From Candidatus Curtissbacteria bacterium (GTDB lineage Bacteria; Patescibacteriota; Microgenomatia; Curtissbacterales; GWA2-41-24), in assembly GCA_024654445.1 (NCBI GenBank), contig JANLHP010000017.1, positions 210,524 through 268,154 on the forward strand: a DNA stretch of 57,631 nt, written 5' to 3'. How positions within the stretch are numbered: the first letter of the stretch is position 1; every line of letters starts with the position of its first letter. The translations under genes were made by a program, and so were the position numbers. Below the pieces are notes generated by a model, which was not told the origin of the DNA, searched no databases, and saw only the letters and a list, made by a program, of their open reading frames with translations. Positions 5,101 through 27,659 of the stretch are shown here, piece after piece.

Positions 5101-6398
5101 ATGTTGCTCTTGCTCAGCAAAAAAAGGACGTTTGGAAAGGCAGAATACATCAGGATTTAGTAGATCGCTTAAGGAACGAATTCCACATAAGTAACGAGAC
5201 CATAGAAGAATGGGAAGAAGCAGGTTTACTGGATCAGGCTGTAAATGTGGGCTATTGGGAAGGGTACATGGATTCGGCTTTTTCGGAGTTTGGACTTGTG
5301 AGGATTTTTGACAGGAGGAAAGTGTTCTATCGTTTGGATAATGCAAAAATTATGGGAATACCGCCTGCGGGTGGAGGACCTGCTGGGTATGAAAATATGG
5401 ACAACGTTGTCCATTACCAGGTGTATTCTTCGGTCTACGGAGAAGAAAGCAATATTTATAACCAACGAAGGATAGATTTTGGTCCTGAATGGATTCTCGA
5501 TGAACTTAGGGGGAAAACAGGCAAAAACGTAGACAGGGATTTGGATACAAATACGGTATTATGGGAAAAAATGCTTGGCAAAAGAAGGGGTATGCTTCAC
5601 AACAATAGGATGTCAGTAAAGTACACAAGCGATAAATTCCGAGAATCGAAAGATTTTGCGCCAAAACTTTTAACAGCTAAAGCCAAAGAATATGGCTATA
5701 GTACTTTTGAGGATTTTAAGAAACTATTAAAGGATACGATGAATAATTTGGACAATGTAAGAACTTTGGACATCAACGATGATGAATTTGATGAATCCTG
5801 GGCAAGAGGGGCCGCTCTAGCGGAGTTATTCGAGGACGGCTTTCTCTCTTTTGAGGGAATTAATTGGAGCGAAGTCTACAATAATAACGACACAAACGTT
5901 TCCAAATTCAACATGGGTGACTGGACGGGCGATCGTAAATCGACGTGGGATTTTTATGGGACAGAAGGTTTGCAACGCTACCTGAAAACGCCGAACACTA
6001 AGATTTTCTTCGATGTTATGAGTGAAAAGTTCTTCTATTCCAAGAGGGAAAATCGGCTTAAGTCTTGGTACAAAATAGTGCTTCCTGCGCATTTCGAAAT
6101 TGGGGATCACTGGAAGGAATGGTATAGCTCGAACTACAACATGACTAGCGCCGAGAAGGAAGAGATGATCGAAGAGGCCGTTTCTATCAACCGATTGGAA
6201 AAAGAGGCTGAGAGTGCTTTTAAAGCGCAGAATTTAGGAATACTTCCGGTTCGCAGAGCATTTCAATTTTATGAAACATGGAGAATAATAGCTGAAGAGA
6301 CAATCACTAAAAGATCTTTCAATCTTTTCCTCAATTTCTTACTAGAAATGTTTAAAGGAATGTTTGGGCAATCAATGGCTCAGCTAGAGGGAAAATAA
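2187..6398 (+). CDS. 1403-aa hypothetical protein, no recognisable domain; K/E-rich N-terminus, no signal peptide or TM
   Basis: single uninterrupted ORF, AGGAG at 2167-2171, TATAAT at 2149-2154; all antisense ORFs are short. Confidence 0.85.
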   Translation: MSMELDIIQLMPEGTSRRKEDEYPQDELKKDAQAEKSRAEAKAREKDKREAERKGRQKENEAQVKNNEDAASQAQKTPKKQEEEEERVVVFKDMRVASELSNAVRNKQDIVASEDELQSLRNILTVVGNDLKDVEKMSVGQMLVAVQEVAQDERIVVADAEEEDWLNEKGQPERVAEEKEVQQLIETARSKDEVKLDAEKVEKYVKVSTEKVSKPRAKAAVQQAEIDPDSRALKLEGEGGTTYVVATSKRLYNLEHRQVEAVFRSQGVDVKVPSAERWNRASGWVRQKWLHKHDIVNTTELPEVDDEGRFIYKDRGHGMTFVVAKDGTKKGLIYGQRGRDIDFDALNGLVARAGIDVDIEKPEGWEDMSFDRKKDLFREKEIFLPLPASGGAGGGVIYYDTQDLGVEMVAGPPGTPPRRQLNHQEATTLLMRRLVDLDTDELTQPAANVDRQEVFERLRDVSGEYYDILRNTRGIPYERYKGTVIEVSLIELKALESLERNMGTAAFATSGYEAERQALYRELADIGSTEEILHRIIYIKTEPVPGPPTPAQHDELQALIGAVEFQVGTAENLAAAKGEGFRLVNNVIKGLEKQEVLTQKIPNQRDVLDDTISETRRKDLRALLKEMGGHFKEVERQIGVKAKNSLYIPLNEKIDELEKLASMGSTNKDEIDEQLYIFALSLPSPRGTEGLLEWRAAISTEGVERNILRQAEVGVPRAWSESERNAENNFRYIESSDLSQEEVRAALGNVVAISEALSRIKGTERIDALRMKEKIDKQKLAVEGKYYQRKLTWNGDGNPEKFIQIFEGDQWNDETRGVFQSRFDRDHEGNEYKGTDNFGNEVKFNMADLSTTTWYRQLYRDHEDFNLIEPLTALNISAQIVRGDATCNQIEGMLRRRLLDSEITRLNELRQIFKNEVTPEVSLIPNRPPGPPSDAEIDKYWADPKNAEGIISAWHKRTTLVGAHGKDDSVANVALAQQKKDVWKGRIHQDLVDRLRNEFHISNETIEEWEEAGLLDQAVNVGYWEGYMDSAFSEFGLVRIFDRRKVFYRLDNAKIMGIPPAGGGPAGYENMDNVVHYQVYSSVYGEESNIYNQRRIDFGPEWILDELRGKTGKNVDRDLDTNTVLWEKMLGKRRGMLHNNRMSVKYTSDKFRESKDFAPKLLTAKAKEYGYSTFEDFKKLLKDTMNNLDNVRTLDINDDEFDESWARGAALAELFEDGFLSFEGINWSEVYNNNDTNVSKFNMGDWTGDRKSTWDFYGTEGLQRYLKTPNTKIFFDVMSEKFFYSKRENRLKSWYKIVLPAHFEIGDHWKEWYSSNYNMTSAEKEEMIEEAVSINRLEKEAESAFKAQNLGILPVRRAFQFYETWRIIAEETITKRSFNLFLNFLLEMFKGMFGQSMAQLEGK

Positions 6399-6458
6399 CG
6401 TCTTCGGCGACCAAATTAATGTTCTAATCCTAAAACTGAAGCCTTTACGTTCTCTCCA

Positions 6459-7940
6459 TTATTCTTCGCGCGGTCCGGGTCTTGTGTGCATTTCCTTTCC
6501 ATACATACCCCTGCTATAAATTCTCTCAAATGCAGCTTCTCTGGTCGCGTGGGCTCGTGCTTCACCGACTGGTTTATACGCTTCTCTAAATGGTCTGGCC
6601 GCAAGACTACCCGCAGCTCCAACAGCTGCTACGCCGCCCCCGATATTCAATCCGCCTTTGACTCCAAACCTATCTTTTACAAGTTGCGCCGCGCTCGGGG
6701 TCATCAGCAAGAATCCCAAGCCGATTAAACTCCCTATATTATTGAGGCCAAGGTTACCAGAAAGAAGGGGAAATTGTCCAATGTCGCCCGGTTTAAACGC
6801 GGGTTGGTCGTTTATGCCTCCTAGGTTACCAACGCCGGAAAGTATGCCCGCGAAAATGAACATTATCGCGACAACTGGAAAAACGGCTATATTGGCGCCT
6901 AGCTGCCTGAACCATTCTCTGGCGCCGTTATTACCAGGCATTGCCTGGACCAATAGTAGAAAAGGTCCGAAAACTGTAAGGATGATAATGGTTACGTAAG
7001 CCATCAAAAGCATGAAGAAAACCCGGAACATGATGAAAAGCATCGCTATTGCTAAAATTATGCCGGCTATTGACCCTCCAAACATGCCGACCACCTTGGA
7101 CAAAAATCCATCTCCAAATAATTGACTAATAAGGTTTTGGATAGCCGTAAAAACTTGATCGAATATTCCCGTAAGTGAGCCCATGACTACGCTAAACACG
7201 TTCGATTTAACTACGTTTTGAGCATTTTCGTTAACAAGGCCCGCTTGTTCAAGAGTAGTTATTACAACGTTTAGAAAAACGAACATTAGGTCTATCATGA
7301 GGCCAACTATCGCGTAACTGAAGGTGACAAGAATTAAGGCGATAACGATTCTCGGTATGGAATCTTGAACTGTAGCGACTGCCTGCGGGGAAATGTGTGT
7401 GCGGAACATGACCATAAAGCCAATGATGACAAAAACTATCACGAAGCCCATGTAGGAAATATTGCGAAAGACGGTCCATAAATTCTGGACTGGTGTTAAG
7501 GCTTGGTAGCCGATTCCCTGGGCGTAGGCCGGCTGAATCGGGTTAAACCTTTCTATTTGTTGCGCGAAGTATTGAGTGCCGGAAGCGGGGGGAGTCGTGA
7601 TTATGCCTGCGACCATTCTGCCTGTTACGTTGAGCGCTCCGGTGGTTTTTGTAACGTCGTTTGTTTCTGAGTGGAGCTGAGAATGACCTGTCAAAAGCGT
7701 GAGCAAGCTGTCGGCAGTTCCCGCGATTTGGTTTAAGTTGAATATTTTATCGTCGTAAACTTGTTTAGTTACAGCCGTTGTGTTGAGTTCTCTGATGCTT
7801 TCAGCTGCGTCGAGAGGTGTTTGAGCGTAGACTGGCGACAGAGTTAAGAGAATAGAGAGTAGAGCTAAAAGCGCAAAAATTACTAAAGCGATTGACAATT
7901 TACGATTAACAATTAACGATAAAACGGCAGTTATTTTCAT
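6459..7940 (-). CDS. polytopic membrane protein, VirB6/TrbL-like
   Basis: signal-like N-terminus (…LTLSPVYAQ), then at least 6 hydrophobic helices and a Gly-rich tail; context within T4SS-like locus. Confidence 0.5.
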   Translation of the reverse strand: MKITAVLSLIVNRKLSIALVIFALLALLSILLTLSPVYAQTPLDAAESIRELNTTAVTKQVYDDKIFNLNQIAGTADSLLTLLTGHSQLHSETNDVTKTTGALNVTGRMVAGIITTPPASGTQYFAQQIERFNPIQPAYAQGIGYQALTPVQNLWTVFRNISYMGFVIVFVIIGFMVMFRTHISPQAVATVQDSIPRIVIALILVTFSYAIVGLMIDLMFVFLNVVITTLEQAGLVNENAQNVVKSNVFSVVMGSLTGIFDQVFTAIQNLISQLFGDGFLSKVVGMFGGSIAGIILAIAMLFIMFRVFFMLLMAYVTIIILTVFGPFLLLVQAMPGNNGAREWFRQLGANIAVFPVVAIMFIFAGILSGVGNLGGINDQPAFKPGDIGQFPLLSGNLGLNNIGSLIGLGFLLMTPSAAQLVKDRFGVKGGLNIGGGVAAVGAAGSLAARPFREAYKPVGEARAHATREAAFERIYSRGMYGKEMHTRPGPREE

Positions 7941-9476: not shown

Positions 9477-10844
9477 TTATTCGGCGCATGTCGCTTCGAG
9501 GCCACACCTTGGACATTCTGTTGTGCCAGATCCATAAATGATTATGGTGCCGCAGCGAGGGCAGGGGAAATCGCTGTCGTCTTCGCCAGCATCATTTGTA
9601 GAAGGGGCAAAGTCGGCGGCGGATTGAGCACTGATTGCTTTTGCGAGTCTCGATATGGCAGGGGTGAGACTGAAGCCTTTTTGTTTCCCCGGGCAACCTC
9701 GTCTGCTTGTTTTTGGCATGCGTCTGCCCTTAATTTGGATTTGTTCTTCGATGTCTTCATCGTTTGTGCGAACGAGGTTTCTTGAGGTCCACAAAATTTT
9801 TGCTTTTTCTTGCTTGAACTTTGTAAAAGCATCCTGTTTTACTTTTTTTACTTTTTGTTTGATCTTCTCAACTTCTTCGTCGAAAGTGTTGAGGGTAGTA
9901 TTCCAGATCATTTTGAGTCGCTCTATTGCTAGGGGGGTATCGGCGAGCGTTCGGATGTAGGCTAAAAAATAGGGAATGCAGGGTTCCAATGCCTCTTGAA
10001 GTAGCTCTGTATTTTTTGCCCGATTGTCGAGGGCGAAGTTTTCCAGAATTTGGGGAAGATTAAATTTAGTTTCGGCAGGTCGGGAGAGCATATAGGCAGC
10101 GTTTAAAGTTTGCTCTTGATTTGGTCTTTGGTAGCCTGGGTCTACTTGGCAAAGCGCATCTAAAAACCCGGCATTGGAGTGGTTGGAGTGGTATTTGTTC
10201 GCGGTGATGGTTTCACCATTCTGTTCTATAACGTAAAAAATGTTGTCATGGTAAAGGATGTCGTCGTCCTCGCCTTTTGGTTCCTCTTCTTCGCCGTGTT
10301 TGCAACGTTCCGATCTTGGAGAGGCGACAACTAAGGTGACATCTCTCCTCTCTGCTAGAAGCCTTATTATTTCTTCGAAACCATCAATTTCTGCTAACTC
10401 TCTTTCGACTTCGTTGCTGCCGTTTTCTTCCAGAAATTGTTGACCCTTTTTATATCTTTCGATAACGGGTAGGGGATAATCGTCGCTCCAGAGTTGACTC
10501 TCGTCGTCCAGGTAGTAATGAAAAGTGCTTCTTTCGACCGCCAGACGCTCGCCTAGAGTCTTTTCTAAGTTGTGATAGGTTCTGTCGTTTGTTTGATCAA
10601 GAAGGCTTTCATACTCGGTCTGGGGAATTTTCCCGCGCAGAGGTTGGAGGTCGAGATAATCCTGGATGTCGTGGCGAGGGTTGTAAGCTAGAATTCCTTC
10701 AAAATCTTCGGGTATATTCCAGCGGACCGACTCGCGGGTAACAAGGTGAGACCTTGTCATACAGTGCCATGCGGTCCTCGTCCTTCGGACTGCGGGCCTA
10801 AAGGTCTCTCCTTGTTGATTTAGGTTGCTTGGAATTCGTTCCAT
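9477..10844 (-). CDS. hypothetical 455-aa protein with acidic patch and C-terminal CPxCG…CPxCG zinc ribbon
   Basis: ORF; AGGAGG 8 nt upstream of ATG 10844; C-terminus FPCPRCGTIIIYGSGTTECPRCG. Confidence 0.75.
   Translation of the reverse strand: MERIPSNLNQQGETFRPAVRRTRTAWHCMTRSHLVTRESVRWNIPEDFEGILAYNPRHDIQDYLDLQPLRGKIPQTEYESLLDQTNDRTYHNLEKTLGERLAVERSTFHYYLDDESQLWSDDYPLPVIERYKKGQQFLEENGSNEVERELAEIDGFEEIIRLLAERRDVTLVVASPRSERCKHGEEEEPKGEDDDILYHDNIFYVIEQNGETITANKYHSNHSNAGFLDALCQVDPGYQRPNQEQTLNAAYMLSRPAETKFNLPQILENFALDNRAKNTELLQEALEPCIPYFLAYIRTLADTPLAIERLKMIWNTTLNTFDEEVEKIKQKVKKVKQDAFTKFKQEKAKILWTSRNLVRTNDEDIEEQIQIKGRRMPKTSRRGCPGKQKGFSLTPAISRLAKAISAQSAADFAPSTNDAGEDDSDFPCPRCGTIIIYGSGTTECPRCGLEATCAE
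10743..10813. repeat. A-type stem (AAGGTGAGACCTT / AAGGTCTCTCCTT) whose loop holds a B module; lies inside the first 34 codons of CDS 9477-10844
   Basis: AAGGTGAGACCTT-GTCATACAGTGCCAT-GCGGTCCTC GTCC ttcg GGAC TGCGGGCCTA-AAGGTCTCTCCTT. Confidence 0.75.
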
Positions 10845-11208
10845 TAAAAAACCTCCTATTTAGTCTCGAGGAGGTTTACAAGTCGCTTTAGACCCGCAAT
10901 GCTAATGAGGATCGCAAGCTTCGCTTTTTGGGCGAGTTATCCTGCTCGGGACTATCCTGCGCTAAAGCTTCGGATAGCAAGCTTTTTTAGCTAAGGATTC
11001 CAATCCATTGCGGTATTAGGACTTATACATTGCTTACTAAAGCTTTGTAATTACCTTTGCGGCACAGTTCCGGAGTCAAACCGGATTCCCCGCTTGCCCG
11101 CCTAAATTGAGTCTTTGACTCTATTTGGCGAGGCGATGGAATTTAGATTGTAAATCTAGATTAGCACTGGGGGTGTGAGGAATCAATAGCCCTCGTTTAC
11201 TAAAGCAG

Positions 11209-11441
11209 AAGGTCTCATCCCTGACAGGGTGAGACCTTAAATACTCGGGAGTAACTTTTAGATTTAAGGAATTTTTTAAAATTCCTTGCGGTCCTCGACT
11301 AAAGTCTGCGGGCCTAAAGGTAGGGCACCTCTTCGAGTCTGAGCAATGAGGCTTACCTCAGAGTCGATGACTTTTGAAGACTCCCTCCGTCGCTCTATTA
11401 GAGCAGAGCTCTGGCGAGCAGGCAAGGATGCCACCTTTAAT
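11209..11441. repeat. mosaic block: A hairpin (11209-11238), AAGGAATTTTTTAAAATTCCTT palindrome (11266-11287), B module (11288-11317), full-length C element (~11315-11441)
   Basis: read directly. Confidence 0.8.
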
Positions 11442-11445: not shown

Positions 11446-11937
11446 TCAGCAGCCGTCCGGAAGGATGTTGAAGTTGGGGTTTTGCTGCTTTAGTTCAAAA
11501 TTTAGAATAAACCTAACCGGAAGAGTGCAGAGGTCTTGCTGTTTGAGTTCAAAATCCAAAAACCACTTTTGCGCGAGAACTCTGGATTCAATTGGATTTT
11601 GGTTGACCATTACGAAGAATATATCCGGAGTAGGTACGTAAACAATCCTGAAATCTTGAGATTCAAATAATACGATGTCGCCGTTTTGATTTGATAATTC
11701 CGAAGCTATAATTTTGTCCCTTATCGGTTTTATATCTTTGTTTTCCTGAACAGTTTTTTCTTTAGGAGGGATTATTACTTCTGGAGATAGAGCTGAAGGA
11801 TTTGGTGATTCTAATGGAGTAGGTGACTTCTTGTCGCGTGCCGAAAAGACGCTTAAGAGTATTAAGCCAATTAGGACAAAAATAACCGCAATCGTGAACA
11901 GTGGTGATCTTTGTCTAATCGCGTTTAAATTTAACAT
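11446..11937 (-). CDS. hypothetical single-pass membrane protein (163 aa)
   Basis: N-terminal TM LFTIAVIFVLIGLILLSVF; start overlaps stop of upstream gene (11931-11937). Confidence 0.65.
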   Translation of the reverse strand: MLNLNAIRQRSPLFTIAVIFVLIGLILLSVFSARDKKSPTPLESPNPSALSPEVIIPPKEKTVQENKDIKPIRDKIIASELSNQNGDIVLFESQDFRIVYVPTPDIFFVMVNQNPIESRVLAQKWFLDFELKQQDLCTLPVRFILNFELKQQNPNFNILPDGC

Positions 11938-14048
11938 CCTTTTGCGATACCGCTTTTCCTTGCTACTTGCCAGTAGCAGAAAGGCGTAATGGATTTGTTA
12001 TAGTTGATGGCATTTGTTATTTGAACTCGCCAAGGAACATCACCGTGATCAAATGTTCCATTTTTGCCCCTTCCCATTTGAAACAATCCCCAGGCTCCAG
12101 CTGTGTCTGGTGTGTCGTCTGCCCCTGCTTGTTGATGGGGGCGGTAAGCATTTGGTCCGTAACTGCTTTCTCCCGCGATGATTGTTAGCCAAGTAGAAAA
12201 ATTCGCCGGATCCTCGGCTTGGACCATTTGGGACATTAATTCGAAGCTGAAATCACAAGCCGGATCGCCGAAGTTACCGAGAGGATTATTGAGCGCGTAC
12301 TTGCCCCCGCAATTGTCAGCGGTAACGGGATGGCTTCCCGGGGCACTTTGCCCGAAATCACTGCAGCCCGCGCTTCTTAGTGTTGGATCTTGCTGGTCAA
12401 CAGGAGTCAGGGAAATATTAACTGTTTGCTTGCTGCAGTTTACTGTGCCCACGCCCCTTGTTTTTGGGTCGTCATTTGCCGAAGCACCTTGTGTTTGACC
12501 CGGTTGCTTAAGACCAGGAAGATATTTTCCACCGATTAAGCTATTAGGTATGAAGTAAGAATAAACACCTGGATTTTTTTTATCCGAGTAGCTCAAGTTG
12601 TTCCAAGCTTCAGCTGTCCAGGGTAAGTTAAAAATGGGCCAAATCCTGACAGTAATGTCGCAGTCGTACCGGTCAGAGGTTCCCTGTATGAGGGTACAGT
12701 CTGGTCCTGGCACGGGGTATCGGTTGAGTATGGGCATCTCGTTGCCCCCTTCAGTTGATAATCCGGGCCACCGAAGTGTAAAAGTGCAAACGACATTGTC
12801 ATTGCCTTCTTCAAGTTTGTTGTTATCTACTATATTTTTATAGGGATTGTCACACCTTACATTCATGCCATCGATTTGGTTTATGCGATCAATTTCACCG
12901 GGAGGGAATGGGCAATAGGGTGCCTGACCCGCTTTGGGGTCCTTGCTGGTAATGATACAAGTGGAATTTTCAGGCACTACTTCGGCAAATGCGGGCCTGA
13001 TGAGATCTAGCCTTTCCATTGTTATCTGTATTATTTTGCCGAGGTTTTTAGCTAATCCTTCAGATGTTTTGGTGAGCAGATTTTTACAGAGGTCGATGGT
13101 TGCCGCGAAGATATTGCCGGAGTCTATAGAGCTGGTTTGAACCTCTTTGCATCGTGGATCATTCGGATCTAATTCTGGGTTCAAGATTCTGTGGCACTTG
13201 TCTCTTTGGGTGTCCAAAGGAACAATCAGGCGGTTGAGCTGGTCGGAAATATGGGCGGTACGGAAATGTTCTGGGAGGGTGATGTTTATTTTATAAGACT
13301 GAAAAAGGCACTGACCCTGTTCTAAGCGCTTGATATCTTTTTGTCCGACTGCTGATTTAAAGTTGATAAAACCTTTATGGAATTCGCTATAGGAGGTTGG
13401 GATTTTTTCCCAATATCTGCCCCAAGTGTTAGGGTCTTGAGTTTCTCCTACAGGTTTTGGGTGGCCGAAATCCGTTACCATCTGAAAAATAGTCCTGGGG
13501 TCGCCTCCTTTAATGTCTGAAATTTGAGTTTCGGCTTCTGGTAAATTGTGGCCGGCTTCGGAAGAGACGTAATTAATGTATTTAATTTTTAAATCGTCGA
13601 TCAAAATTTTATCTGAGAGTTTTTGTGCAGGGCCGTGGTAGTTATTCAAATCTTCACCATTGAAGCTGGTTATATCAGAAAGTTGATGCGCAGGATCCTG
13701 GAATTTTCCTCCCCCAAAGTCGGAGTTTTCGGGAGCAAAGACTGCTTGAAGTTTTGAAAAGTCGACTAGGAATGGGAAGTCTTTGGATTCAAGGGGAATG
13801 TATTTCTCGTTGCTTACAGGTATAGTTTGTGCCTGAACATTGCGTAGAGAGTAATTTAATATTATTGGGGCTTCGCCGTCTTCGGCAATTATCGGATTTT
13901 CTGATAAATCTTTTGCGTCTTTTGGAAACGCACATGGTTGAGGGTCGGGAGCAACGGGCGTTTGGGCGGATGCCGAAGAGGGTATAGAGAATAGAGTTAA
14001 GAGGAAGATAAAGATAATTAACTTTAAAATCTTTGGCAGCGCAGGCAT
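11931..14048 (-). CDS. secreted 705-aa protein with C-terminal lytic-transglycosylase (SLT/VirB1-like) domain
   Basis: signal peptide …SSASAQ; C-terminus IIAGESSYGPNAY…AWGLFQMGRG…AINYN has the E-S / GLxQ / Y pattern of SLT domains. Confidence 0.6.
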   Translation of the reverse strand: MPALPKILKLIIFIFLLTLFSIPSSASAQTPVAPDPQPCAFPKDAKDLSENPIIAEDGEAPIILNYSLRNVQAQTIPVSNEKYIPLESKDFPFLVDFSKLQAVFAPENSDFGGGKFQDPAHQLSDITSFNGEDLNNYHGPAQKLSDKILIDDLKIKYINYVSSEAGHNLPEAETQISDIKGGDPRTIFQMVTDFGHPKPVGETQDPNTWGRYWEKIPTSYSEFHKGFINFKSAVGQKDIKRLEQGQCLFQSYKINITLPEHFRTAHISDQLNRLIVPLDTQRDKCHRILNPELDPNDPRCKEVQTSSIDSGNIFAATIDLCKNLLTKTSEGLAKNLGKIIQITMERLDLIRPAFAEVVPENSTCIITSKDPKAGQAPYCPFPPGEIDRINQIDGMNVRCDNPYKNIVDNNKLEEGNDNVVCTFTLRWPGLSTEGGNEMPILNRYPVPGPDCTLIQGTSDRYDCDITVRIWPIFNLPWTAEAWNNLSYSDKKNPGVYSYFIPNSLIGGKYLPGLKQPGQTQGASANDDPKTRGVGTVNCSKQTVNISLTPVDQQDPTLRSAGCSDFGQSAPGSHPVTADNCGGKYALNNPLGNFGDPACDFSFELMSQMVQAEDPANFSTWLTIIAGESSYGPNAYRPHQQAGADDTPDTAGAWGLFQMGRGKNGTFDHGDVPWRVQITNAINYNKSITPFCYWQVARKSGIAKGC

Positions 14049-14101
14049 AAGTTCAGTATATCAATAATTGTTGATTGTTGTGTTGCTAACGATGTGTGGA
14101 G

Positions 14102-14133
14102 AAGGTCTCACCTTGATTCAAGGATGAGACCTT
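14102..14133. repeat. A hairpin AAGGTCTCACCTT-gattc-AAGGATGAGACCTT
   Basis: between pilin 14170 stop and transglycosylase start. Confidence 0.8.
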
Positions 14134-14169
14134 AAATCTAATAATTTTAACGATGTATCGATTTAACAA

Positions 14170-14448
14170 TTACTCTGGAATTCTGACAGTAGTGACGTCT
14201 ACGCCTGTGACCCTTCCAATAAGCTGGAGAATTAGCCAGGACGCGACAACTAAAACAATACCGATTACGGCATAGGTGAGTATGCTTTGCGCCTGGCCGA
14301 CGTTTTTAGGATCGCCGCCCGAGGTGATGTATTTAAAACCGCCGACAATAAGCATGACGAAAAACGCGATCCCTGCCGCCGGAGCGAGCAAAGATATTAT
14401 GCGTTGCAAGACGTCTAGGATATCCGTAATCTGGGCTGGGCCGTCCAT
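14170..14448 (-). CDS. T4SS pilin-like (VirB2/TrbC-type two-TM hairpin) protein, 92 aa
   Basis: FFVMLIVGGFKYITSGGDPKNVGQAQSILTYAVIGIVLVVASWLILQLI module shared by six neighbours. Confidence 0.7.
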   Translation of the reverse strand: MDGPAQITDILDVLQRIISLLAPAAGIAFFVMLIVGGFKYITSGGDPKNVGQAQSILTYAVIGIVLVVASWLILQLIGRVTGVDVTTVRIPE

Positions 14449-14483
14449 ATAAACCTGTAGTTATCGTCTGCCTTGCTAACTTT

Positions 14484-14900
14484 TTAGCACTCTAACTGTT
14501 TTACAGTTGGAATACAGACTCCTCCGCTTAATATCGGGATTCCGAAGAAGGTCTCTACAAGCCTGATCAACGCAAAAGCAATCAAGACAACAACTAAACC
14601 GATTAAAGCAGCTGTTATAGTGCTTCTTGCGTTTGCGACAGCTTTTTCATCTCCACCTGCAAGTATCCAGCGAATACCGCCAACCAAAAGCATGATGAAT
14701 GCGATAACAAAGGCAACAACGATTATGAATTGAATAACTGCTTGGACAATTCCGATTATGTTGTTGACGCCGGGGTCATCAAGGGGAGGTGGTACTATTG
14801 GGCCTTCTCTATCAAGTGGAGCAGGTTGAGCAATTAGTACGGGAGCATAAAAATTAGCGTTTTTGTGTACTAAGTCGATTATTTTTTTAACTTTTAACAT
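14484..14900 (-). CDS. T4SS pilin-like protein, 138 aa
   Basis: FIMLLVGGIRWILAGGDEKAVANARSTITAALIGLVVVLIAFALIRLV; GGAGGTGA SD upstream of ATG. Confidence 0.7.
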   Translation of the reverse strand: MLKVKKIIDLVHKNANFYAPVLIAQPAPLDREGPIVPPPLDDPGVNNIIGIVQAVIQFIIVVAFVIAFIMLLVGGIRWILAGGDEKAVANARSTITAALIGLVVVLIAFALIRLVETFFGIPILSGGVCIPTVKQLEC

Positions 14901-14917
14901 ATATTTATCTCACCTCC

Positions 14918-15427
14918 TCATGGACTTGATCTTGTCGGTAGCTGAAATCCTCCTGAAATAATTTCTATACCAAAGAAGGTTTCTACCAATTTGATTATAG
15001 CAAAAGCACCCAGCACAATTACCAGTCCCAGAAGACCCCAATATATTCTGCTCCAGGCGGTTGAAATGTTTTTGGGGTCACCGTTCGCGAAGATAAAGCT
15101 ATAGCCCGCGAATATCATCCAAATCACGGCGATTACGAAGGCGACGATTATAAGAAGCCAGATGCCGTTTCTGATGAAACCCGCGATGAAATCGGAAACG
15201 CTTTGGTTGCCAATATCTACCACTCCTGAGGGGGCTTCTATCGTTCCGATTCCGGGTTGGACATTCCCTGGCGCTTGATCAATAGGGCCGCGGGGAGCAT
15301 CCTGATCACCGACGCCGTCTTGCGGAGGCGGGAAGGACGGGTCACCTTCTCCTTGAGCGAAAACCGTGGTCGATGAGAAAAGGAAGAGCAGGAGAGGTAA
15401 GGTAAGTGTGATTAAAAGCTTTTTCAT
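14918..15427 (-). CDS. T4SS pilin-like protein with signal peptide and Pro/Gly-rich ectodomain, 169 aa
   Basis: signal …TTVFAQ; VIWMIFAGYSFIFANGDPKNISTAWSRIYWGLLGLVIVLGAFAIIKLV. Confidence 0.7.
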   Translation of the reverse strand: MKKLLITLTLPLLLFLFSSTTVFAQGEGDPSFPPPQDGVGDQDAPRGPIDQAPGNVQPGIGTIEAPSGVVDIGNQSVSDFIAGFIRNGIWLLIIVAFVIAVIWMIFAGYSFIFANGDPKNISTAWSRIYWGLLGLVIVLGAFAIIKLVETFFGIEIISGGFQLPTRSSP

Positions 15428-15438
15428 TTGCGTTTGTT

Positions 15439-15522
15439 CAAGGATCTCACCTCTTCGAGTCTGAGCGATGAGGGCTTGTCCCTCAGAGTCGAAGACTTTC
15501 GAAGACTCAAGGAGAGACCTTG
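15439..15522. repeat. hybrid element: A-type arms (AAGGATCTCACC … GGAGAGACCTT) enclosing the internal core of element C
   Basis: core TCTTCGAGTCTGAGCGATGAGGGCTTGTCCCTCAGAGTCGAAGACTTTCGAAGACTC ~90% identical to cores at 11330-11385 and 17926-17980. Confidence 0.8.
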
Positions 15523-15528
15523 AAGCTT

Positions 15529-15837
15529 CTAAAACTGAATGTTTGTACCCAAGAAATACTGTACAGCTTTTAGGATAACAAATGCCAGAGCGGTTACAAC
15601 AAGGCCGACAACGGCATAAGTTATCATCGCGCCTGCCGCCGACAACTTTTTGGGGTCTCCACCGGATGTTACGAGTCTGATTCCGCCAATAATTATGAAT
15701 ACAACAGCGATTACACCAGCTATACTTGTTAGGATAAGAATGAGGTCGCTTGCCAGGCTGCCTATGTCGGAAAAGAGTCCGGCTGGCTGAAAAATGTCAC
15801 TGTTAATTCTAAATTCTGCAGCGTATGTGTCAAACAT
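15529..15837 (-). CDS. T4SS pilin-like protein, 102 aa
   Basis: VVFIIIGGIRLVTSGGDPKKLSAAGAMITYAVVGLVVTALAFVILKAV. Confidence 0.7.
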   Translation of the reverse strand: MFDTYAAEFRINSDIFQPAGLFSDIGSLASDLILILTSIAGVIAVVFIIIGGIRLVTSGGDPKKLSAAGAMITYAVVGLVVTALAFVILKAVQYFLGTNIQF

Positions 15838-15879
15838 GGACTAATTGTTAATTTCTAATTTTTAATTTTAAAAAATCTG

Positions 15880-15969
15880 ATTTAAGGTGGCATCCTTGAG
15901 TCCTCGAGAGGTGCCCTACCTTAAATCTTAAAAGTTCAAGGATGAGACCTTAACAAGGATCTCACCTTG
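15880..15969. repeat. minimal C element (TIRs only, 15880-15926) plus A-type hairpin (15937-15969)
   Basis: ATTTAAGGTGGCATCC-ttgagtcctcgaga-GGTGCCCTACCTTAAAT. Confidence 0.8.
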
Positions 15970-15991
15970 AACACCAGATTCTCCGAGTTTT

Positions 15992-16624
15992 CTACGTTAT
16001 CGTCGTTCCCAAGAACAATCTGTTAACTACTTGTAATATAGCAAAAGCCAAAAGAATAATGACAAAGCCAATTATGGCGTACATTAGCCTTCCTCGTGCC
16101 TTGCCAACGGCTTCTGGGTTGCCCCCGGACGTGATGAATTGAATACCAGAAAATATTATGAATAGGACTGTAATCATGCCAGCGATGGGGAGGACAACTT
16201 TGAGCGCTGCTTCAACTAAAGTTGGAACCAAATCCTGCTCTTTTTTAAATTTCAAATCGTCGACAGCGATATCTTTTAGGCAGTCACTGAAGCCTTTACA
16301 TGGTTGGGACGAGGTGCCCGAACCGGGTTGTTGTGTGTTCCTGCCACCCGGGTCTGGTTGAGTATTCCCGTCGTCCTGATCTGGTGGGGAGGCGGTTTTT
16401 AGAAAACACGCGGGATGTCCGTACGAATCTATCTCTTCTTCAGTAGCCGAGTTGCAGCCCTCCGGTGGTCTGTCTCGTCCGCATCGGGGGCCGCCCGTAG
16501 TTACATTATGTACATATGGATCTGAGCAATGATTGGCAGAGACAGGGTTCGAGAGGACGGAAAGTGGAGCCAAAATAAGAAAGATAAAAATTAAAATAGT
16601 GAGAGAAAGTTTTTGCCAGATCAT
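15992..16624 (-). CDS. T4SS pilin-like protein with Cys-containing ectodomain, 210 aa
   Basis: signal/TM N-terminus; VLFIIFSGIQFITSGGNPEAVGKARGRLMYAIIGFVIILLAFAILQVV. Confidence 0.7.
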   Translation of the reverse strand: MIWQKLSLTILIFIFLILAPLSVLSNPVSANHCSDPYVHNVTTGGPRCGRDRPPEGCNSATEEEIDSYGHPACFLKTASPPDQDDGNTQPDPGGRNTQQPGSGTSSQPCKGFSDCLKDIAVDDLKFKKEQDLVPTLVEAALKVVLPIAGMITVLFIIFSGIQFITSGGNPEAVGKARGRLMYAIIGFVIILLAFAILQVVNRLFLGTTIT

Positions 16625-16625
16625 T

Positions 16626-17768
16626 TTAAAAACCCAAAGTAGGGCCCAAGATACTCGAACCGATAAATCGTAGAATTAGCACGCTGAGTATTAAAAAGAT
16701 CAAGCCCGCAATAGCAGCGACAAACATGTCTTTTCCCGCCGTTAACTTTTGTTGGTCTCCAGATGAGGTGATTACTCTTATCGCGCCAATTGACATGAGT
16801 ATCAAAGCGATTCCGCCCGCTACGCCCAATGAGATTGTTAAGAATCTCTTAATAAAACCGGCGGGGTCGGTGGGAATGTCACCTACTGCCGTATCGCAGA
16901 CATTGTTTTGGCAAGGATTTTGGCCGGAGATTAGGTTTGATGCGTCTTCTTTATTTGGATCGTTGGTAGGCGGAAGAACTTGCCCACCCGCAGGGTCTAT
17001 CTTTACTACGAACCTTTTATACGTAAATCCCCCGGAACATTCGCGGGTGTCCCCAGATATCGAATGCTCGTCAACTTTCTCGTTAATGTCGATTACGTAT
17101 GTCCCAGCTTCTACAGGGGGGAAAGAAACTCTTGTAGAGCCTGTTTCTGGGATCGTGAAGCATCTTTCCTGTTTAAATCCGCCTCCGGTTTGAGTTTTCA
17201 TAACAGCTTGGTAATTATTGCGGTCGTCGGGGCCTGGTCTTCTGCCACTTGCATCGACGAACGTTTGGTCCGAGGGCGTGAAGGTTCCCGAAGAAGTAAC
17301 CGTTACGTTTATCGATAGGTATTCGTGTTTTACCTTAAAGGCTGCTGTTTGAACCTCGCTATTACTGCCTTCGGGGTAAAGCCTAATCCTATAAGTATGT
17401 CCGCCGTGAAAATAGTCGTCGGGGCCACAGTCCTGGTTTATTTTAACGGCATCCTGGCCGTCTCCGCATACTCTTACAGATATCTTATTCTCTGCGTCAG
17501 ACCTTACATCTTTTCTAGCCCAAGCGTCATTGACGATTATCCGGTTGTGAGTTATAGACTCGCAGTGATGTGGGTCAGACAATACACAAAGGTCATAATC
17601 TTTATTCGGCTGTAATCCCGAAAAGACAATGTCTACGAAAGGAACTGTTTCGTTAAGTTCTGTAAAGGTGGGAGGAAATATGATTTCTTGAGCGTGGGCG
17701 GAATTGACTTGGGCTACAAGCGAGGTTGCGAGGACGGCTAGTCCGACAAAAAGTTTCTTGAAATTCAT
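16626..17768 (-). CDS. T4SS pilin-like module fused to ~300-aa Cys-rich secreted ectodomain, 380 aa
   Basis: signal …NSAHAQE; C-terminus LILMSIGAIRVITSSGDQQKLTAGKDMFVAAIAGLIFLILSVLILRFI. Confidence 0.7.
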   Translation of the reverse strand: MNFKKLFVGLAVLATSLVAQVNSAHAQEIIFPPTFTELNETVPFVDIVFSGLQPNKDYDLCVLSDPHHCESITHNRIIVNDAWARKDVRSDAENKISVRVCGDGQDAVKINQDCGPDDYFHGGHTYRIRLYPEGSNSEVQTAAFKVKHEYLSINVTVTSSGTFTPSDQTFVDASGRRPGPDDRNNYQAVMKTQTGGGFKQERCFTIPETGSTRVSFPPVEAGTYVIDINEKVDEHSISGDTRECSGGFTYKRFVVKIDPAGGQVLPPTNDPNKEDASNLISGQNPCQNNVCDTAVGDIPTDPAGFIKRFLTISLGVAGGIALILMSIGAIRVITSSGDQQKLTAGKDMFVAAIAGLIFLILSVLILRFIGSSILGPTLGF

Positions 17769-17861
17769 CTCAATTTCAGTTTAGCACTAGGAAAGTGTAG
17801 GTAGCAAAAGAAATGATAATTGTTACATTGTTAAATTGGTGATTGATAAATTGTTAGGGAA

Positions 17862-18016
17862 AAGGTCTCATCCTTCTTTAAGGTGAGACCTTAAATACCA
17901 AGAGTTAGATTTAAGGTAGGGCACCTCTTCGAGTCTGAGCAATGAGGCTTACCTCAGAGTCGATGACTCTCGACGACTCCCTCCAAGGGCGGGCAAGCAA
18001 GGATGCCACCTTAAAT
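17862..18016. repeat. A hairpin (17862-17892) plus full-length C element (17909-18016)
   Basis: ATTTAAGGTAGGGCACC…GGATGCCACCTTAAAT, 108 nt. Confidence 0.8.
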
Positions 18017-18044
18017 CGCTTCTTCTGTTGTACCAGTTTTCAAC

Positions 18045-18053
18045 TGGTATAAT
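18045..18053 (+). promoter_or_regulatory. extended -10 promoter TGGTATAAT upstream of SpoIID-like gene
   Basis: sequence match only; same 9-mer at 27529-27537. Confidence 0.5.
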
Positions 18054-18079
18054 ACAAGGACGGTAAGTGCCGGTTTCCC

Positions 18080-22838: not shown

Positions 22839-23206
22839 GGGGATGTATTGTTTCGACAGGATGGCTCTTTAAAAACTGCAAGCCGAATACGATTCTAAGT
22901 GCGTCAAACTTGAATCAAATTTACGTGCAGACAGAGATGTCTCACCGGCTCCAAGAGGCTTTGCTTTTGCATAAGTTTCTTTAAGAGTCTGTCTTTTAAG
23001 TCTTTTCTCGACGTGACTTACTAGGCAACAACTCAGTCGAGAGTAGGACTTAGGTTCTGATCAAACCTCAGTCTGAAACTTAGATCTTTGTTCTAAATTA
23101 GCCTGTTAATCGGCCACAATTTAAAACGAGATTTTATAGATTAAATAAGCTTGTAGATGTTTTTAAAATGTTTTCTTGGACGAGGGCTCAAAACCCTCCA
23201 TCTCCA
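22839..23206 (+). ncRNA. ssrA: tmRNA (SsrA)
   Basis: 5' GGGGATGTATTGTTTCGACAGGATGG…; 3' GGACGAGGGCTCAAAACCCTCCATCTCCA with acceptor pairing GGGGATG/CATCTCC incl. G3:U70; in-frame tag ending …GFAFA-TAA (stop 22972-22974); smpB adjacent. Confidence 0.9.
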
Positions 23207-23219
23207 CACACTCTCTCTG

Positions 23220-24666: not shown

Positions 24667-24677
24667 CTCTCCACCAT

Positions 24678-24833
24678 GTCATTATGTAGCCCTTCACTCC
24701 TGTCATCCTGAGCGGAGCGAAGGATCTGTCCTTTGTTCAGGGTAAACTCCGCGCGAGAATCTTTTCTAGATCCTATTTCGAGTTCGCGAGAAACAAGCTC
24801 TCTTTTCGTGGTCGTTGCCACTCCAGGATGACA
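24678..24833. repeat. 156-nt GTCATYCTG-family element, paralog of 27354-27503
   Basis: …CCTGTCATCCTGAGCGGAGCGAAGGATCTGTCCTTTGTTCAGGGTAAACTCCGCG…CTCCAGGATGACA. Confidence 0.75.
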
Positions 24834-25595: not shown

Positions 25596-25874
25596 TGGCG
25601 GAGGAGGTGGGATTTACAACTAAAGTTGTAGTATAGTGCACTTCGCTTGCACTATAAACGAACCCTTCCTGCGGAGGCGAGAGGATTCGAACCTCTGAGA
25701 GCCTTACGGCCCTAGTTGTTTTCAAGACAACCGCACTAGTCCACTATGCGACGCCTCCGAGTTGTCCAATTATCGCACTAGTCCACATTAGGCCCGCAGA
25801 TCTGCTATGCAGATCGAGGACCGCATGCCATGGCCCTGAGTAATCGAAGGGGCACTGTATATGCGACCTCTCCC
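25596..25874 (-). other. tRNA-Ser-like outer shell (5' acceptor/D-arm piece with 72-nt D-loop insert; T-arm/acceptor/CCA piece with 44-nt T-loop insert) enclosing tRNA-Ser(UGA)
   Basis: minus-strand reading GGGAGAGGTCGCATA[72 nt]TGTGGACTAGTGCG…[tRNA]…GGAAGGGTTCG[44 nt]AATCCCACCTCCTCCGCCA; compare genuine GGAGGCGTCGCATAGTGGACTAGTGCG and GGGTTCGAATCCCACCTCCTCCGCC. Confidence 0.6.
25672..25758 (-). tRNA. tRNA-Ser(UGA), class II
   Basis: folded by hand: acceptor GGAGGCG/CGCCTCC, anticodon stem GTTGT/ACAAC, loop CTTGAAA, 18-nt variable arm, T-arm AGAGG-TTCGAAT-CCTCT. Confidence 0.9.
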
Positions 25875-25877
25875 AGT

Positions 25878-25950
25878 TGGCGGAGGAGGTGGGATGTGCG
25901 CTTTTTGCGCGAATAGTGCACTCCGTTTACACTATTTACGAACCAATGGG
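25878..25950 (-). other. orphan tRNA-Ser 3'-half-like fragment with 43-nt T-loop insert, immediately downstream of tRNA-Ser(GCU)
   Basis: minus strand …GGTTCG[TAAATAGTGTAAACGGAGTGCACTATTCGCGCAAAAAGCGCAC]ATCCCACCTCCTCCGCCA. Confidence 0.55.
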
Positions 25951-26012
25951 TTCTCATCAGCCACCTCTCTTTTACAAAATTAGGACTAAAAAAGCCCAAT
26001 TTCGCAAAAGGG

Positions 26013-26101
26013 CGGAGGAGGTGGGATTCGAACCCACGCGAGCCGGTAAAGGCTCAAGGGTTTAGCAAACCCTCGCAATGGACCAACTATGCGACTCCTC
26101 C
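26013..26101 (-). tRNA. tRNA-Ser(GCU), class II
   Basis: acceptor GGAGGAG/CTCCTCC, anticodon stem AGGGT/ACCCT, loop TTGCTAA, 19-nt variable arm, T-arm GTGGG-TTCGAAT-CCCAC. Confidence 0.9.
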
Positions 26102-26150
26102 TAAATTGCTGCCTCATTTTACCAGAGACAGGTTTGTACATCAATGAATT

Positions 26151-26663
26151 ATGAGTTATATTTACCGCAATAATCTTAAGATTGGTACTGTGATTCTTAA
26201 TTTCAATCTCACCAGAAGAAACTTACTCGCAATTTTTCTTGGTTTTTTAGTGTTCTTGGTGCTTTTTATAGTGGCAAAAGTGTTAGTTTTATTCACATTT
26301 CATCAAGCGGTGTTGAATTTTCCTTTAGGAGATATTGAGGGTTCTCTTTCCCGTCAGCCATTTGCTGCCATCCTTTGGATATCAAGAACCTTGTCACTAA
26401 TGGCTCCGTTATTAGGAGGAGTTGTAATAGGTTATATGGTTAGAGAAAGAGGATGGTTTTATGGTGGTTTGCTGGGAGTTTTACTGGCAATTATTTTTAT
26501 GGGAATTATCTCTCTAGGTTTTTTTGTGCCCGAATCTTTTAATCCCAACTCATTCGGCGAGATTATACTTGAGGTGATTTTTTACTTGCCTTTATATGTA
26601 GTTTTGACTGCTCTTGGAGGTTGGTTGGGAGAAATACTTAAAAACAGGAAGTCATTGGTTTGA
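26151..26663 (+). CDS. hypothetical polytopic membrane protein
   Basis: ORF with 4-5 hydrophobic helices. Confidence 0.6.
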   Translation: MSYIYRNNLKIGTVILNFNLTRRNLLAIFLGFLVFLVLFIVAKVLVLFTFHQAVLNFPLGDIEGSLSRQPFAAILWISRTLSLMAPLLGGVVIGYMVRERGWFYGGLLGVLLAIIFMGIISLGFFVPESFNPNSFGEIILEVIFYLPLYVVLTALGGWLGEILKNRKSLV

Positions 26664-26692
26664 TCTTTTTGTGATAAACTAAAACTGCCAAA

Positions 26693-27268
26693 ATGCCCAG
26701 ATTCCACAAAACAGACGTAAACGTAGACCATCACTCCGGCAGAGTTATTTCCAAGGAAGAACTTGATGCCAAAAGACAGGCAGCGGTTGAATCCAGAACG
26801 ATAGTTTCCTGGAAATCTCCGGTCCACATTTTTAAACAAAGGTCTAAAAAATACTTCACAAAAGTGGCGCTTTACGCGTTTGTCTTTATTCTGGCGGCGA
26901 TCGCTTTTGGAGAATTTTTCTTGGTCGGTGTAATTATCGCTTTGGTTTTTGTTGTTTATGTATTTGCCAATTCTGCTCCAGAGGTAATTGAACACAAAAT
27001 TACTAATTTGGGGATAATCAGCGGTGGGCGAGTATTTTTATGGGAAGAGCTGGATTCTTTTTGGTTCGATAAAAAGGGAGATGAGAGGCTGCTTTTGGTG
27101 CAAACTCACATGCATTTTCCTTCGCGGTTGATCTTGATTCTGACAACGATTTCGGAAAGAACCCTTTTAGAGCAACTGGAAAGACATCTCCATTATCACG
27201 CTGCACCGGTGCACACACTTTTGGATAAATGGGCCCATAAACTTCAGAGTAAAATAAGCTTAGATTAG
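26693..27268 (+). CDS. hypothetical membrane protein
   Basis: ORF, two central TM helices. Confidence 0.6.
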   Translation: MPRFHKTDVNVDHHSGRVISKEELDAKRQAAVESRTIVSWKSPVHIFKQRSKKYFTKVALYAFVFILAAIAFGEFFLVGVIIALVFVVYVFANSAPEVIEHKITNLGIISGGRVFLWEELDSFWFDKKGDERLLLVQTHMHFPSRLILILTTISERTLLEQLERHLHYHAAPVHTLLDKWAHKLQSKISLD

Positions 27269-27353
27269 CCTTCTGAAGCTTGCGGTACTCGTTCTGAAAC
27301 AGAACTCCGTGCCTAAAACTCCAAAGCAAAATTTCATTGGATTAATTTTTATT

Positions 27354-27503
27354 GTCATTCTGGAGCCCTTCATTCCTGTCATCCTGAGCGGAGCGAAGGA
27401 ATCGTCCTTTGTTCATGATAAACTCCGCGACAGAATCTATCCTTGAGATCCTATTCGAAGAAAAGCTTTGCTTATCGGTCGTTTTACTCCCTCCAGGATG
27501 ACA
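27354..27503. repeat. 150-nt GTCATYCTG-family element with TIR TGTCATTCTGGAG / CTCCAGGATGACA
   Basis: long stretches identical to 24678-24833. Confidence 0.75.
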
Positions 27504-27528
27504 ACCCTTAATGTACACAGCCTTCGGC

Positions 27529-27537
27529 TGGTATAAT
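27529..27537 (+). promoter_or_regulatory. extended -10 promoter TGGTATAAT upstream of tRNA-Arg
   Basis: 40 nt upstream of mature tRNA 5' end. Confidence 0.55.
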
Positions 27538-27653: not shown

Positions 27654-27659
27654 TTTAAT

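Follow-up and report, generated by a model that had tools for sequence, protein, structure and literature searches.

Does a row of six divergent pilin-like genes on one chromosome encode alternative versions of a single surface subunit, or the separate parts of one structure? The question is raised by six head-to-tail open reading frames (ORFs) on the minus strand, at 14170-17768 of a 57,631-nucleotide (nt) stretch of Candidatus Curtissbacteria DNA (GenBank assembly GCA_024654445.1, contig JANLHP010000017.1, positions 210,524 to 268,154), which we refer to as a whole as the window. We numbered the array members positions 1-6 along the direction of transcription (380, 210, 102, 169, 138 and 92 amino acids (aa), respectively). 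An earlier reading of this DNA from its letters alone, hereafter the sequence-only reading, had taken these genes for a repertoire of alternative pilus or surface subunits that share a C-terminal module; the six ORFs lie where it placed them, and the three peptides it quoted occur verbatim. The locus is almost certainly a VirB2-like pilin array of a Patescibacteria type IV secretion system (T4SS), and, as judged by comparison of related loci, its six genes are old, individually conserved orthogroups that make up a fixed set of distinct subunits. The T4SS is a chromosomal one of monoderm type (MPF-FATA-related) and belongs to a Candidatus Curtissbacteria-like bacterium: dnaG, rpoD, a transfer-messenger RNA (tmRNA) gene and five tRNA genes near the array place it on the chromosome, and the nearest named homologs come from Candidatus Curtissbacteria (Microgenomates, Patescibacteria).

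Alignment of the six proteins revealed a C-terminal module common to all of them, with similarity among the six far above chance. The sequence-only reading had recognized this module and its two helices correctly, but its length is ∼70-90 aa rather than the ∼50 aa first given. The module consists of a hydrophobic helix, a loop of the form (T/A)(S/A)(G/S/N)G(D/N)(P/E/Q)xK and a second hydrophobic helix, and hydropathy analysis likewise finds two hydrophobic segments in every one of the six proteins; the other members of the array show 24-35% identity to the 92-aa member. The Pfam family PF18895 (T4SS_pilin, gathering score 26.6 bits) claims four of the six proteins, namely those at position 2 (47.7 bits, E = 1.6e-12), position 6 (47.5 bits, E = 2e-12), position 3 (36.0 bits, E = 7.5e-9) and position 5 (30.8 bits, E = 3e-7). 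The remaining two score just under the threshold, with 20.2 bits at position 4 and 20.4 bits at position 1, and position 4 also approaches the cutoff of the TrbC family PF04956 from below (26.4 bits, E = 8e-6; gathering score 27.9 bits). Hidden Markov models (HMMs) built for the lineage place these 169- and 380-aa proteins in the same family with 87-104 bits, and several of their homologs carry a precomputed PF18895 annotation. Homologs of the module at large are labelled Curtissbacteria or Patescibacteria, and the majority of them carry PF18895. The expectation that the module would match T4SS pilin profiles of the VirB2/TrbC type has therefore held, above threshold for four proteins and near it for two. 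Position 5 also shows a weak resemblance (17.4 bits against a cutoff of 40, E = 0.0026) to NCBIfam NF045849, the Mbov_0395 family of pilin-like two-helix proteins from integrative and conjugative elements of Mycoplasma, which are monoderm and of MPF-FATA type; it is not a member of that family. The six proteins do not look like type IV pilins, as their hydrophobic module is C-terminal and no N_methyl or pilin family of Pfam matched at E ≤ 1.

Structure prediction bears on the same point. The AlphaFold2 (AF2) model of the 92-aa protein, made with 40 homologs, reaches a predicted local distance difference test (pLDDT) score of 87 and consists of helices at residues 7-42 and 47-81, so that the helical hairpin expected from sequence is also the predicted one; the model of the 380-aa protein contains the same hairpin (helices 302-335 and 339-377). 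When the 92-aa model was compared by Foldseek with 350,542 PDB chains, its best hit was the conjugation pilus of Aeropyrum pernix (8dfu, E = 1.2), which superimposes with template modelling (TM) scores of 0.67/0.72 and a root-mean-square deviation of 2.5 Å over 75 columns at 13% identity, and the Agrobacterium T-pilus (8fai) also appeared in the short list (E = 8.8). The archaeal Ced/Ted DNA-import pili represented by 8dfu are like the array in this best structural match, in their single-membrane host and in belonging to a system without relaxase association, but with such an E-value and such identity homology is not demonstrated. The predicted fold of the module is consistent with a VirB2-type hairpin without proving one. 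The only PDB sequences matched by the module profiles were de novo designed helical proteins with a loop of GDPKAV type, and these matches were set aside as spurious.

Arrays of this kind have been catalogued before. According to the passages of PMC12102498 (Quiñonero-Coronel et al. 2025) on which we draw, a search with PF04956 and PF18895 through 3,035 genomes of Patescibacteria identified 441 VirB2 arrays, each of 2-11 genes, across 383 assemblies, notably in Microgenomates and Saccharibacteria, with a mean within-array identity of 25% and a maximum of 54%, and VirB2-like genes were found near virB4 in 1,135 assemblies. The window locus answers to the array definition in those passages, being a run of six consecutive PF18895/PF04956-type genes on a Patescibacteria chromosome, and also to their low-identity criterion, with means of 20-40% between positions. 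In the passages of PMC10633639 (Wang et al. 2023) used here, an array of six pilins, the same number as in the window, is described from the SEML1_0006-0019 region of Southlakia epibionticum ML1, where the pilin genes lie within the T4SS cluster and are essential. A 2025 review (PMC12857230) describes the Southlakia cluster as six VirB2-like pilins conserved in structure but divergent in sequence and speculates on a pilus, and reviews call the role of the Patescibacteria T4SS and its pilin array completely unknown. The Patescibacteria VirB2 arrays share with ours the Pfam families, the tandem chromosomal arrangement by monoderm-type T4SS genes and a within-array identity of ∼25%; as far as the passages go there is no fundamental difference, and the window locus is one more such array. 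What the present analysis adds is the fixed set of six positions, the asymmetry of their Shine-Dalgarno sites and the turnover of their ectodomains. In the passages of PMC12102498 and PMC10633639 that we consulted, strict one-to-one positional orthology throughout a class-level clade, a single member with a strong Shine-Dalgarno site, swapping of ectodomains at positions 1 and 2 and the presence or absence of signal peptides were not found.

Syntenic loci of relatives were collected via a scan with an alignment of position 5, and the comparison set comprised 23 distinct Curtissbacteria-like loci, the window counted in. One HMM per array position, trained on four genomes, was used to classify all pilin-like ORFs. 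The window proteins scored 164, 149, 149, 162, 163 and 168 bits against the models of their own positions 1 to 6, and across the 23 loci the assignment of genes to positions was unambiguous, with typically 110-170 bits as against 33-90 for the runner-up; the lead was never below about 30 bits and was mostly 50 or more. The order 1-2-3-4-5-6 was invariant, and all six positions were present wherever the contig allowed. A seeming loss of positions 3 and 4 in two loci (L013 and L016) turned out to be an artefact of masked N runs, the genes being present, and the sole change of copy number was a duplication of position 1 in two others (L015 and L019). Module identity amounts to 50-70% for the same position between genomes versus 20-40% between positions, and the most conserved module is that of position 5 (70% between genomes). 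Because the order is fixed, the genes are retained and the divergence of the paralogs is old, the six would not be an interchangeable pool but six non-redundant parts, and the claim of a repertoire of alternative subunits finds no support in the one-to-one correspondence of the six paralogs, in the same order, across these loci.

Translation signals set one of the six parts apart. Shine-Dalgarno sites are scarce in this genome, a duplex with the anti-Shine-Dalgarno sequence of ≤ -8 kcal/mol being predicted for 3 of the 46 window genes, and the strongest of all 46 (ΔG -15.5 kcal/mol) is the one ahead of position 5. In 22 of the 23 loci position 5 is preceded by a strong site (GGAGGTGA or GGGGGTGA; median -14.4 kcal/mol), and the medians for the other five positions lie between -0.1 and -3.6. 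L026 and L027, both labelled Shapirobacteria, and also L029 and L037 have a position-5-like gene that is next to last and bears a strong site; loci from Portnoybacteria (L033) and Saccharibacteria (L035) have a pilin gene with a strong site that is not penultimate. Since the conserved strong site is confined to position 5 within the array, we infer, with Shine-Dalgarno strength as a proxy, that this is the most abundantly made subunit and the candidate major subunit. The idea of a major pilin accompanied by adhesin-bearing minor pilins, put forward in the sequence-only reading, is plausible and compatible with the data, and position 5 now offers a specific candidate for the major one.

Ahead of the module the six proteins part company. 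Their N-terminal regions cannot be aligned with one another and range from ∼0 to 288 aa, in keeping with the earlier description of them as unrelated between copies. It was also noted rightly that only some copies bear a signal peptide, which is clear in the 380-, 210- and 169-aa proteins, degenerate in the 138-aa protein and missing from the 102- and 92-aa proteins, and that the 380-aa protein, with 8 Cys, has a Cys-rich secreted domain. Among orthologs, signal-peptide-like N-termini occur in most proteins at positions 1, 5 and 6, the exact counts for positions 5 and 6 being unreliable under a crude rule that under-calls the Ala-rich leaders of position 5. Where the start of the gene can be read, orthologs at position 1 invariably carry a signal peptide, with a Cys-rich ectodomain that measures ∼146-361 aa. 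The AF2 model of the 380-aa protein (19 homologs, pLDDT 76.6) predicts two β-sandwiches (∼28-147 and 152-257), then a linker and a small β-hairpin by a conserved C-x4-C, and finally the helical hairpin, and Foldseek relates it to tandem fibronectin type III (FN3)/immunoglobulin (Ig)-like domains (E ∼4e-6), with TM scores as low as one expects of a multi-domain query. Signal peptides, Cys content and the Ig/FN3-like sandwiches predicted at position 1 point to long N-terminal parts that are extracytoplasmic and adhesin-like, as had been proposed.

Comparing ectodomain divergence with module conservation, a check that the sequence-only reading had suggested, we found the modules of position 1 similar in 276 of 276 ortholog pairs (median identity 65%) and the ectodomains similar in only 35 of 276, the latter falling into 9 BLAST clusters. 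The N-regions of position 2 span 18-747 aa among orthologs; that of the window (87 aa, 6 Cys) is a singleton, without a BLASTP match among 9 long position 2 N-regions. By such comparisons the N-terminal ectodomains at positions 1 and 2 appear to have been swapped or to have diverged strongly. Position 4 is different: what had been called an ectodomain in the 169-aa protein is a 50-aa stretch, 74% of it P/G/Q/D/N/S/T/E and with zero Cys, which is probably a disordered linker and not a domain. Two relatives combine several changes (L015 3478-9487 and L019 3726-9459): along with their duplicated position 1 they have a position 2 enlarged to 779-834 aa with 15-17 Cys and a position 3 to which an ectodomain of ∼250 aa has been added. 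Positions 1 and 2 are hence not the only ones to acquire ectodomains.

Long N-regions come with signal peptides, and the leaderless members have tails of ∼27-41 aa whose net charge averages -0.8; such short acidic tails would fit an N-out topology in which the tail crosses the membrane without a leader. Many leaderless members start a few residues ahead of what looks like the relic of a cleavage site (M..YAA for positions 2 and 3, M..LAQ for position 4), and YAA and LAQ are the motifs used by those orthologs in L001-L025 that have full signal peptides. A possible origin of these relics is offered by fused proteins. A profile of the six window modules had 86,597 matches among the cluster representatives of 1.84 billion proteins at E ≤ 1e-3, and the best 150 of these matches (P0204-P0353) all have 2-17 modules in one polypeptide, for instance 8 modules in 820 aa (P0204) and 17 matched stretches in 1775 aa (P0207). 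Modules are joined by linkers whose median length is 20 aa and most of which lack a cleavage motif, but a subset of the fused proteins carries AxA-type sites behind the second helix (61 observed versus 29 ± 5 expected from shuffles). The syntenic, Curtissbacteria-labelled locus L037 encodes one such fused protein (6001-7248, 415 aa), composed of a dockerin-like ectodomain, a position-1-type module and two more modules, with the junctions ...SSVAYA/QF... and ...SPVYA/QG... (the slash marks the putative cut). This suggests that adjacent modules fuse and split in evolution, which would explain the relic cleavage motifs of leaderless members. A polyprotein produced in the window itself by stop-codon read-through was considered and rejected because neighbouring genes lie in different frames and the stops are mixed (TAA, TAG and TGA); positions 1 and 2 are separated by a gap of 1 nt (16625), the tight 16624/16626 junction already pointed out in the sequence-only reading.

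How the six products might work together, in respect of topology, co-assembly, the identity of the major subunit and host binding, we infer as follows. Each gene would encode a two-helix membrane hairpin whose termini both lie outside and whose short GGD(P/E)K loop faces the cytoplasm; an N-out/C-out hairpin is the topology of VirB2, TrbC and TraA. Six non-redundant subunit types, presumably made from one operon, would most likely come together in a single extracellular structure associated with the T4SS, a pilus or a stalk. Position 5, translated most, would make up its bulk, and positions 3, 4 and 6 would contribute structural or initiator subunits in low copy. For positions 1 and 2, the hairpin would act as an anchor from which variable N-terminal Ig-like/Cys-rich domains are displayed toward the surface of the host cell. 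We consider it probable, with some reserve, that the array specifies such a single heteromeric surface structure, with position 5 as its bulk, variable host-contact domains on positions 1 and 2, and positions 3, 4 and 6 as low-copy structural members. Quite tentatively, one may go further and picture a heteromeric filament of six obligatory VirB2 paralogs, with a shaft of highly translated position 5 and with positions 1 and 2 as anchors for exchangeable N-terminal cassettes, Ig-like or Cys-rich, on which the choice of host cell would depend. The array would then be related by fission and fusion to polypilins of 2-17 hairpins, some of them cut by signal peptidase at AxA/Q sites behind each second helix, of which the M-x-x-Y-A-A and M-x-L-A-Q N-termini would be relics.

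Several observations weigh against a T4SS-associated extracellular structure of this kind. Foldseek gave no significant match for the 92-aa model among the PDB chains searched, and searches of PDB sequences with the module profiles did not find the solved VirB2, TraA or TrbC; a helical hairpin is, moreover, a simple fold. The window does not include virB4, and none of the neighbours of the array other than PrgI has any family match. The strength of a Shine-Dalgarno site is no more than a proxy for abundance, and the signal peptide of position 5 looks degenerate in this genome, which is odd for the proposed major subunit. No pilus has been reported for any Patescibacteria T4SS. Finally, the fused proteins of 2-17 modules, mostly lacking an evident cleavage site, fit a membrane-embedded assembly at least as well as they fit a classical pilus.

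The fused proteins keep alive the view that the hairpins form part of the channel or platform of a monoderm T4SS within the membrane, with positions 1 and 2 as anchored surface receptors or adhesins. A protein in which the module is concatenated 2-17 times, with a median linker of 20 aa and mostly without a signal-peptidase-like site, would be polytopic, and Gram-positive T4SSs are normally without a pilus; the lack of a significant match to solved pilins sits well with this view too. However, the Pfam assignment and the weak TrbC homology point to the pilin family, the AYA/Q or VYA/Q sites in the fused subset, L037 included, suggest release as separate hairpins, and a polymer would account more readily than a channel of fixed stoichiometry for one highly translated member beside five with weak translation. 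We regard a membrane-embedded assembly as a serious but unlikely account of the array.

The explanation offered in the sequence-only reading was that the pilins are alternatives, possibly expressed differentially through the elements between the cistrons. As interchangeable variants they would alter the surface or the host range, as proposed for the virB2 paralogs of Anaplasma and Bartonella. Divergence within the array is indeed high, position 1 has been duplicated in two relatives, passages of PMC12102498 draw an analogy between VirB2 arrays and antigenic variation, and stable hairpins do stand between some cistrons. The folding z-scores of these spacers range from -3.1 to -4.3, the weakest of them from 17840-17989 within the region upstream of the array. 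The hairpins are assembled from few repeat units, one of which is AAGGTCTCAYCCTTG paired with its own complement, and a 72-nt repeat has two copies that are 96% identical (11317-11388 and 17913-17984) and a further, partial one (15448-15508). Against an expectation of 0.18, the core hairpin motif is matched 10 times in the window, each time in a spacer between genes within the stretch from 1.9 to 18 kb. Repeats at the gene junctions had thus been seen correctly but are not strictly confined to the locus, as a 31-nt unit at 11287-11317 in a T4SS spacer recurs exactly at 29010-29040 in the tRNA region. The motif was not found in any of 36 related loci, where the pilin gene junctions are tight (typically 0-45 nt), and because of this absence the hairpins were rejected as conserved regulators; differential expression through them, as once suggested, would be at most a peculiarity of this genome. 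They look like insertions of the repetitive extragenic palindromic (REP) or miniature inverted-repeat transposable element (MITE) type that are specific to this genome, and they may have a local effect on mRNA stability. Scans of the operon for σ70 promoters and intrinsic terminators gave neither above the shuffled background. The junction between positions 2 and 3 seems prone to insertions, as it holds hairpin repeats in the window (15838-15991) and, in two relatives (L003 11497-11865 and L013 8696-9070), a gene of the 23S_rRNA_IVP family of four-helix bundles.

It tells against interchangeable pilins that the six orthogroups are kept in order in every complete locus of the 23, without loss and with nearly constant copy number, and that divergence between positions is old rather than recent; in addition, passages of PMC10633639 report the Southlakia pilins as essential. 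The virB2 families of Anaplasma, Bartonella and Rickettsiales resemble the array in having several divergent tandem VirB2 genes, but they are read as variable alternatives, whereas the paralogs here are fixed, ordered and all retained, and flux of copy number and sequence of the Anaplasma/Bartonella type is not what the 23 loci show. A repertoire of alternative subunits is consequently improbable.

The genes around the array are consistent in their order, if poorly annotated. In relatives the order is SpoIID, the six pilins, a large secreted protein, a protein of ∼160 aa, a membrane protein of ∼500 aa and a large gene on the opposite strand. The large protein comes next after the array in all related loci, and its window counterpart is the 705-aa protein, which had no Pfam, NCBIfam or PDB match (its C-terminal 124 aa were also searched alone), and whose C-terminal GES...GLFQMG motif recalls, as a guess at the level of the motif, a lytic transglycosylase of VirB1-like type. 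The genes that follow it on the same strand encode a 163-aa protein, three unannotated products and then the 493-aa protein, which had no family match in Pfam or NCBIfam and is a candidate for a putative VirB6-like channel subunit. A gene for 1403 aa lies on the opposite strand between this gene and that of PrgI, and the partial ORF at the left edge of the window is probably virB4, judged by its position; the related loci stop short of this point. It is very improbable that the modules are generic lineage-specific membrane anchors for secreted proteins whose proximity to a T4SS is coincidental: PrgI is the sole recognisable T4SS neighbour and lies 12.6 kb off, and most neighbours are unannotated, but an anchor would have no need of six conserved paralogs, three of them nearly without cargo, and in the passages cited above VirB2-like genes lie near virB4 in 1,135 assemblies (PMC12102498) and the Southlakia pilin genes are essential and sit within the T4SS cluster (PMC10633639).

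Taken as parts of one heteromeric structure, the six proteins invite comparison with better known appendages. They are like VirB2, TrbC and TraA (PF04956; the T-pilus, 8fai, and the F-pilus) in being small proteins, probably encoded with T4SS genes, that have two hydrophobic helices joined by a short polar or basic loop and, in some of the six, a leader-like N-terminus. They differ from these in that there are six obligatory paralogs rather than one major pilin plus VirB5, in that the host is monoderm and in their N-terminal fusions of up to 288 aa (747 aa in relatives); cyclisation and acetylation are without evidence here. Two further likenesses are analogies. Chaperone-usher tip adhesins of FimH type also join a receptor-binding domain that varies to a module for polymerisation, with unrelated folds and machines, and type IV pili also combine one abundant subunit with several low-copy ones, but their class III leader and N-terminal hydrophobic helix are absent here.

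Table 1. Coordinates of the pilin array, its spacers and its T4SS neighbours in the window.
Feature	Coordinates	Strand	Remarks
Position 1 pilin, 380 aa	16626-17768	-	Signal peptide, two predicted Ig/FN3-like β-sandwiches, Cys-x4-Cys knuckle, two-helix module
Position 2 pilin, 210 aa	15992-16624	-	Signal peptide, 6-Cys N-region, low-complexity linker, pilin module
Position 3 pilin, 102 aa	15529-15837	-	Short acidic N-tail opening with a relic YAA cleavage-site motif; no signal peptide
Position 4 pilin, 169 aa	14918-15427	-	Signal peptide, 50-aa P/G/Q/D-rich linker, pilin module
Position 5 pilin, 138 aa	14484-14900	-	Candidate major subunit; signal peptide degenerate in this genome
Position 6 pilin, 92 aa	14170-14448	-	Bare module; start is where the signal peptides of orthologs would be cleaved
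Position 5 Shine-Dalgarno site, GGAGGTGA	14910-14917	-	Directly behind the position 4 stop codon
Spacer downstream of position 6	14049-14169	-	AAGGTCTCATCCTTG...CAAGGTGAGACCTT hairpin, z = -4.0
Position 3/4 spacer	15428-15528	-	Long hairpin, partial copy of the 72-nt repeat, z = -3.5
Position 2/3 spacer	15838-15991	-	Two stable hairpin repeat units, minimum free energy -45.7 kcal/mol, z = -4.3
Region upstream of the array, divergent from a SpoIID-like gene	17769-18079	-	72-nt repeat, hairpins; presumed promoter region
Hairpin repeat family, palindromic	1914-2029, 11209-11437, 14119-14133, 15884-15951, 17862-18012		Intergenic spacers
705-aa secreted Cys-rich protein	11931-14048	-	Downstream neighbour of the array
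493-aa protein with hydrophobic stretches	6459-7940	-	∼500-aa protein at the same place in relatives
PrgI (VirB3-like), C-terminal CarboxypepD_reg-like domain	237-1580	-	PF12666, 38.8 bits against a cutoff of 27
Partial ORF (MAKKQSKTTASTQAHLDIEDIIDNLVILKNGTVALVMSTT...), first 40 codons, directly after PrgI	1-121	-	Runs off the left edge; expected place of virB4

Some features of the window stand apart from the array. A match to the cobalamin riboswitch RF00174 lies on the minus strand at 10992-11153, near threshold (29.5 bits, E = 1.3e-5, where the gathering score is 31.5) and over the full length of the model, in a 600-nt spacer upstream of a 455-aa ORF (9477-10844). This ORF has a zinc ribbon of rubredoxin-like type at its C-terminus, and its Shine-Dalgarno site is the second-strongest of the window. 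Three start codons, those of the partial virB4-like ORF, of position 3 and of a carbamoyltransferase gene, are directly preceded by an AT-rich box, ATTAGAAATTAA(C/A)AAT (136-161, 15841-15866 and about 33060-33080), which could be a promoter or translation element. Further repeats comprise one of 94 nt with 86% identity and the core CCTGTCATCCTGAGCGGAGCGAAGGA (24677-24770, 27353-27446 and 36125-36157) and an exact one of 44 nt (48220-48263 and 52323-52366) just upstream of two plus-strand genes. The tmRNA gene is at 22839-23209, and a tRNA cluster at 25671-29146 contains four tRNA-Ser genes (tga, gct, cga and gga) and one tRNA-Arg gene among small ORFs.

The window locus is itself an ordinary example of a catalogued kind of array. 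Its interest lies in what the comparison of loci adds, since epibiotic growth requires the T4SS and its pilin array in the sole Patescibacterium tested, and a fixed six-part kit, with one probably abundant subunit and two whose surface domains are rapidly exchanged, yields testable predictions for tractable Saccharibacteria systems. If the kit is as proposed, loss of position 5 would abolish the structure, and a swap of the ectodomain at position 1 or 2 would change the host range.

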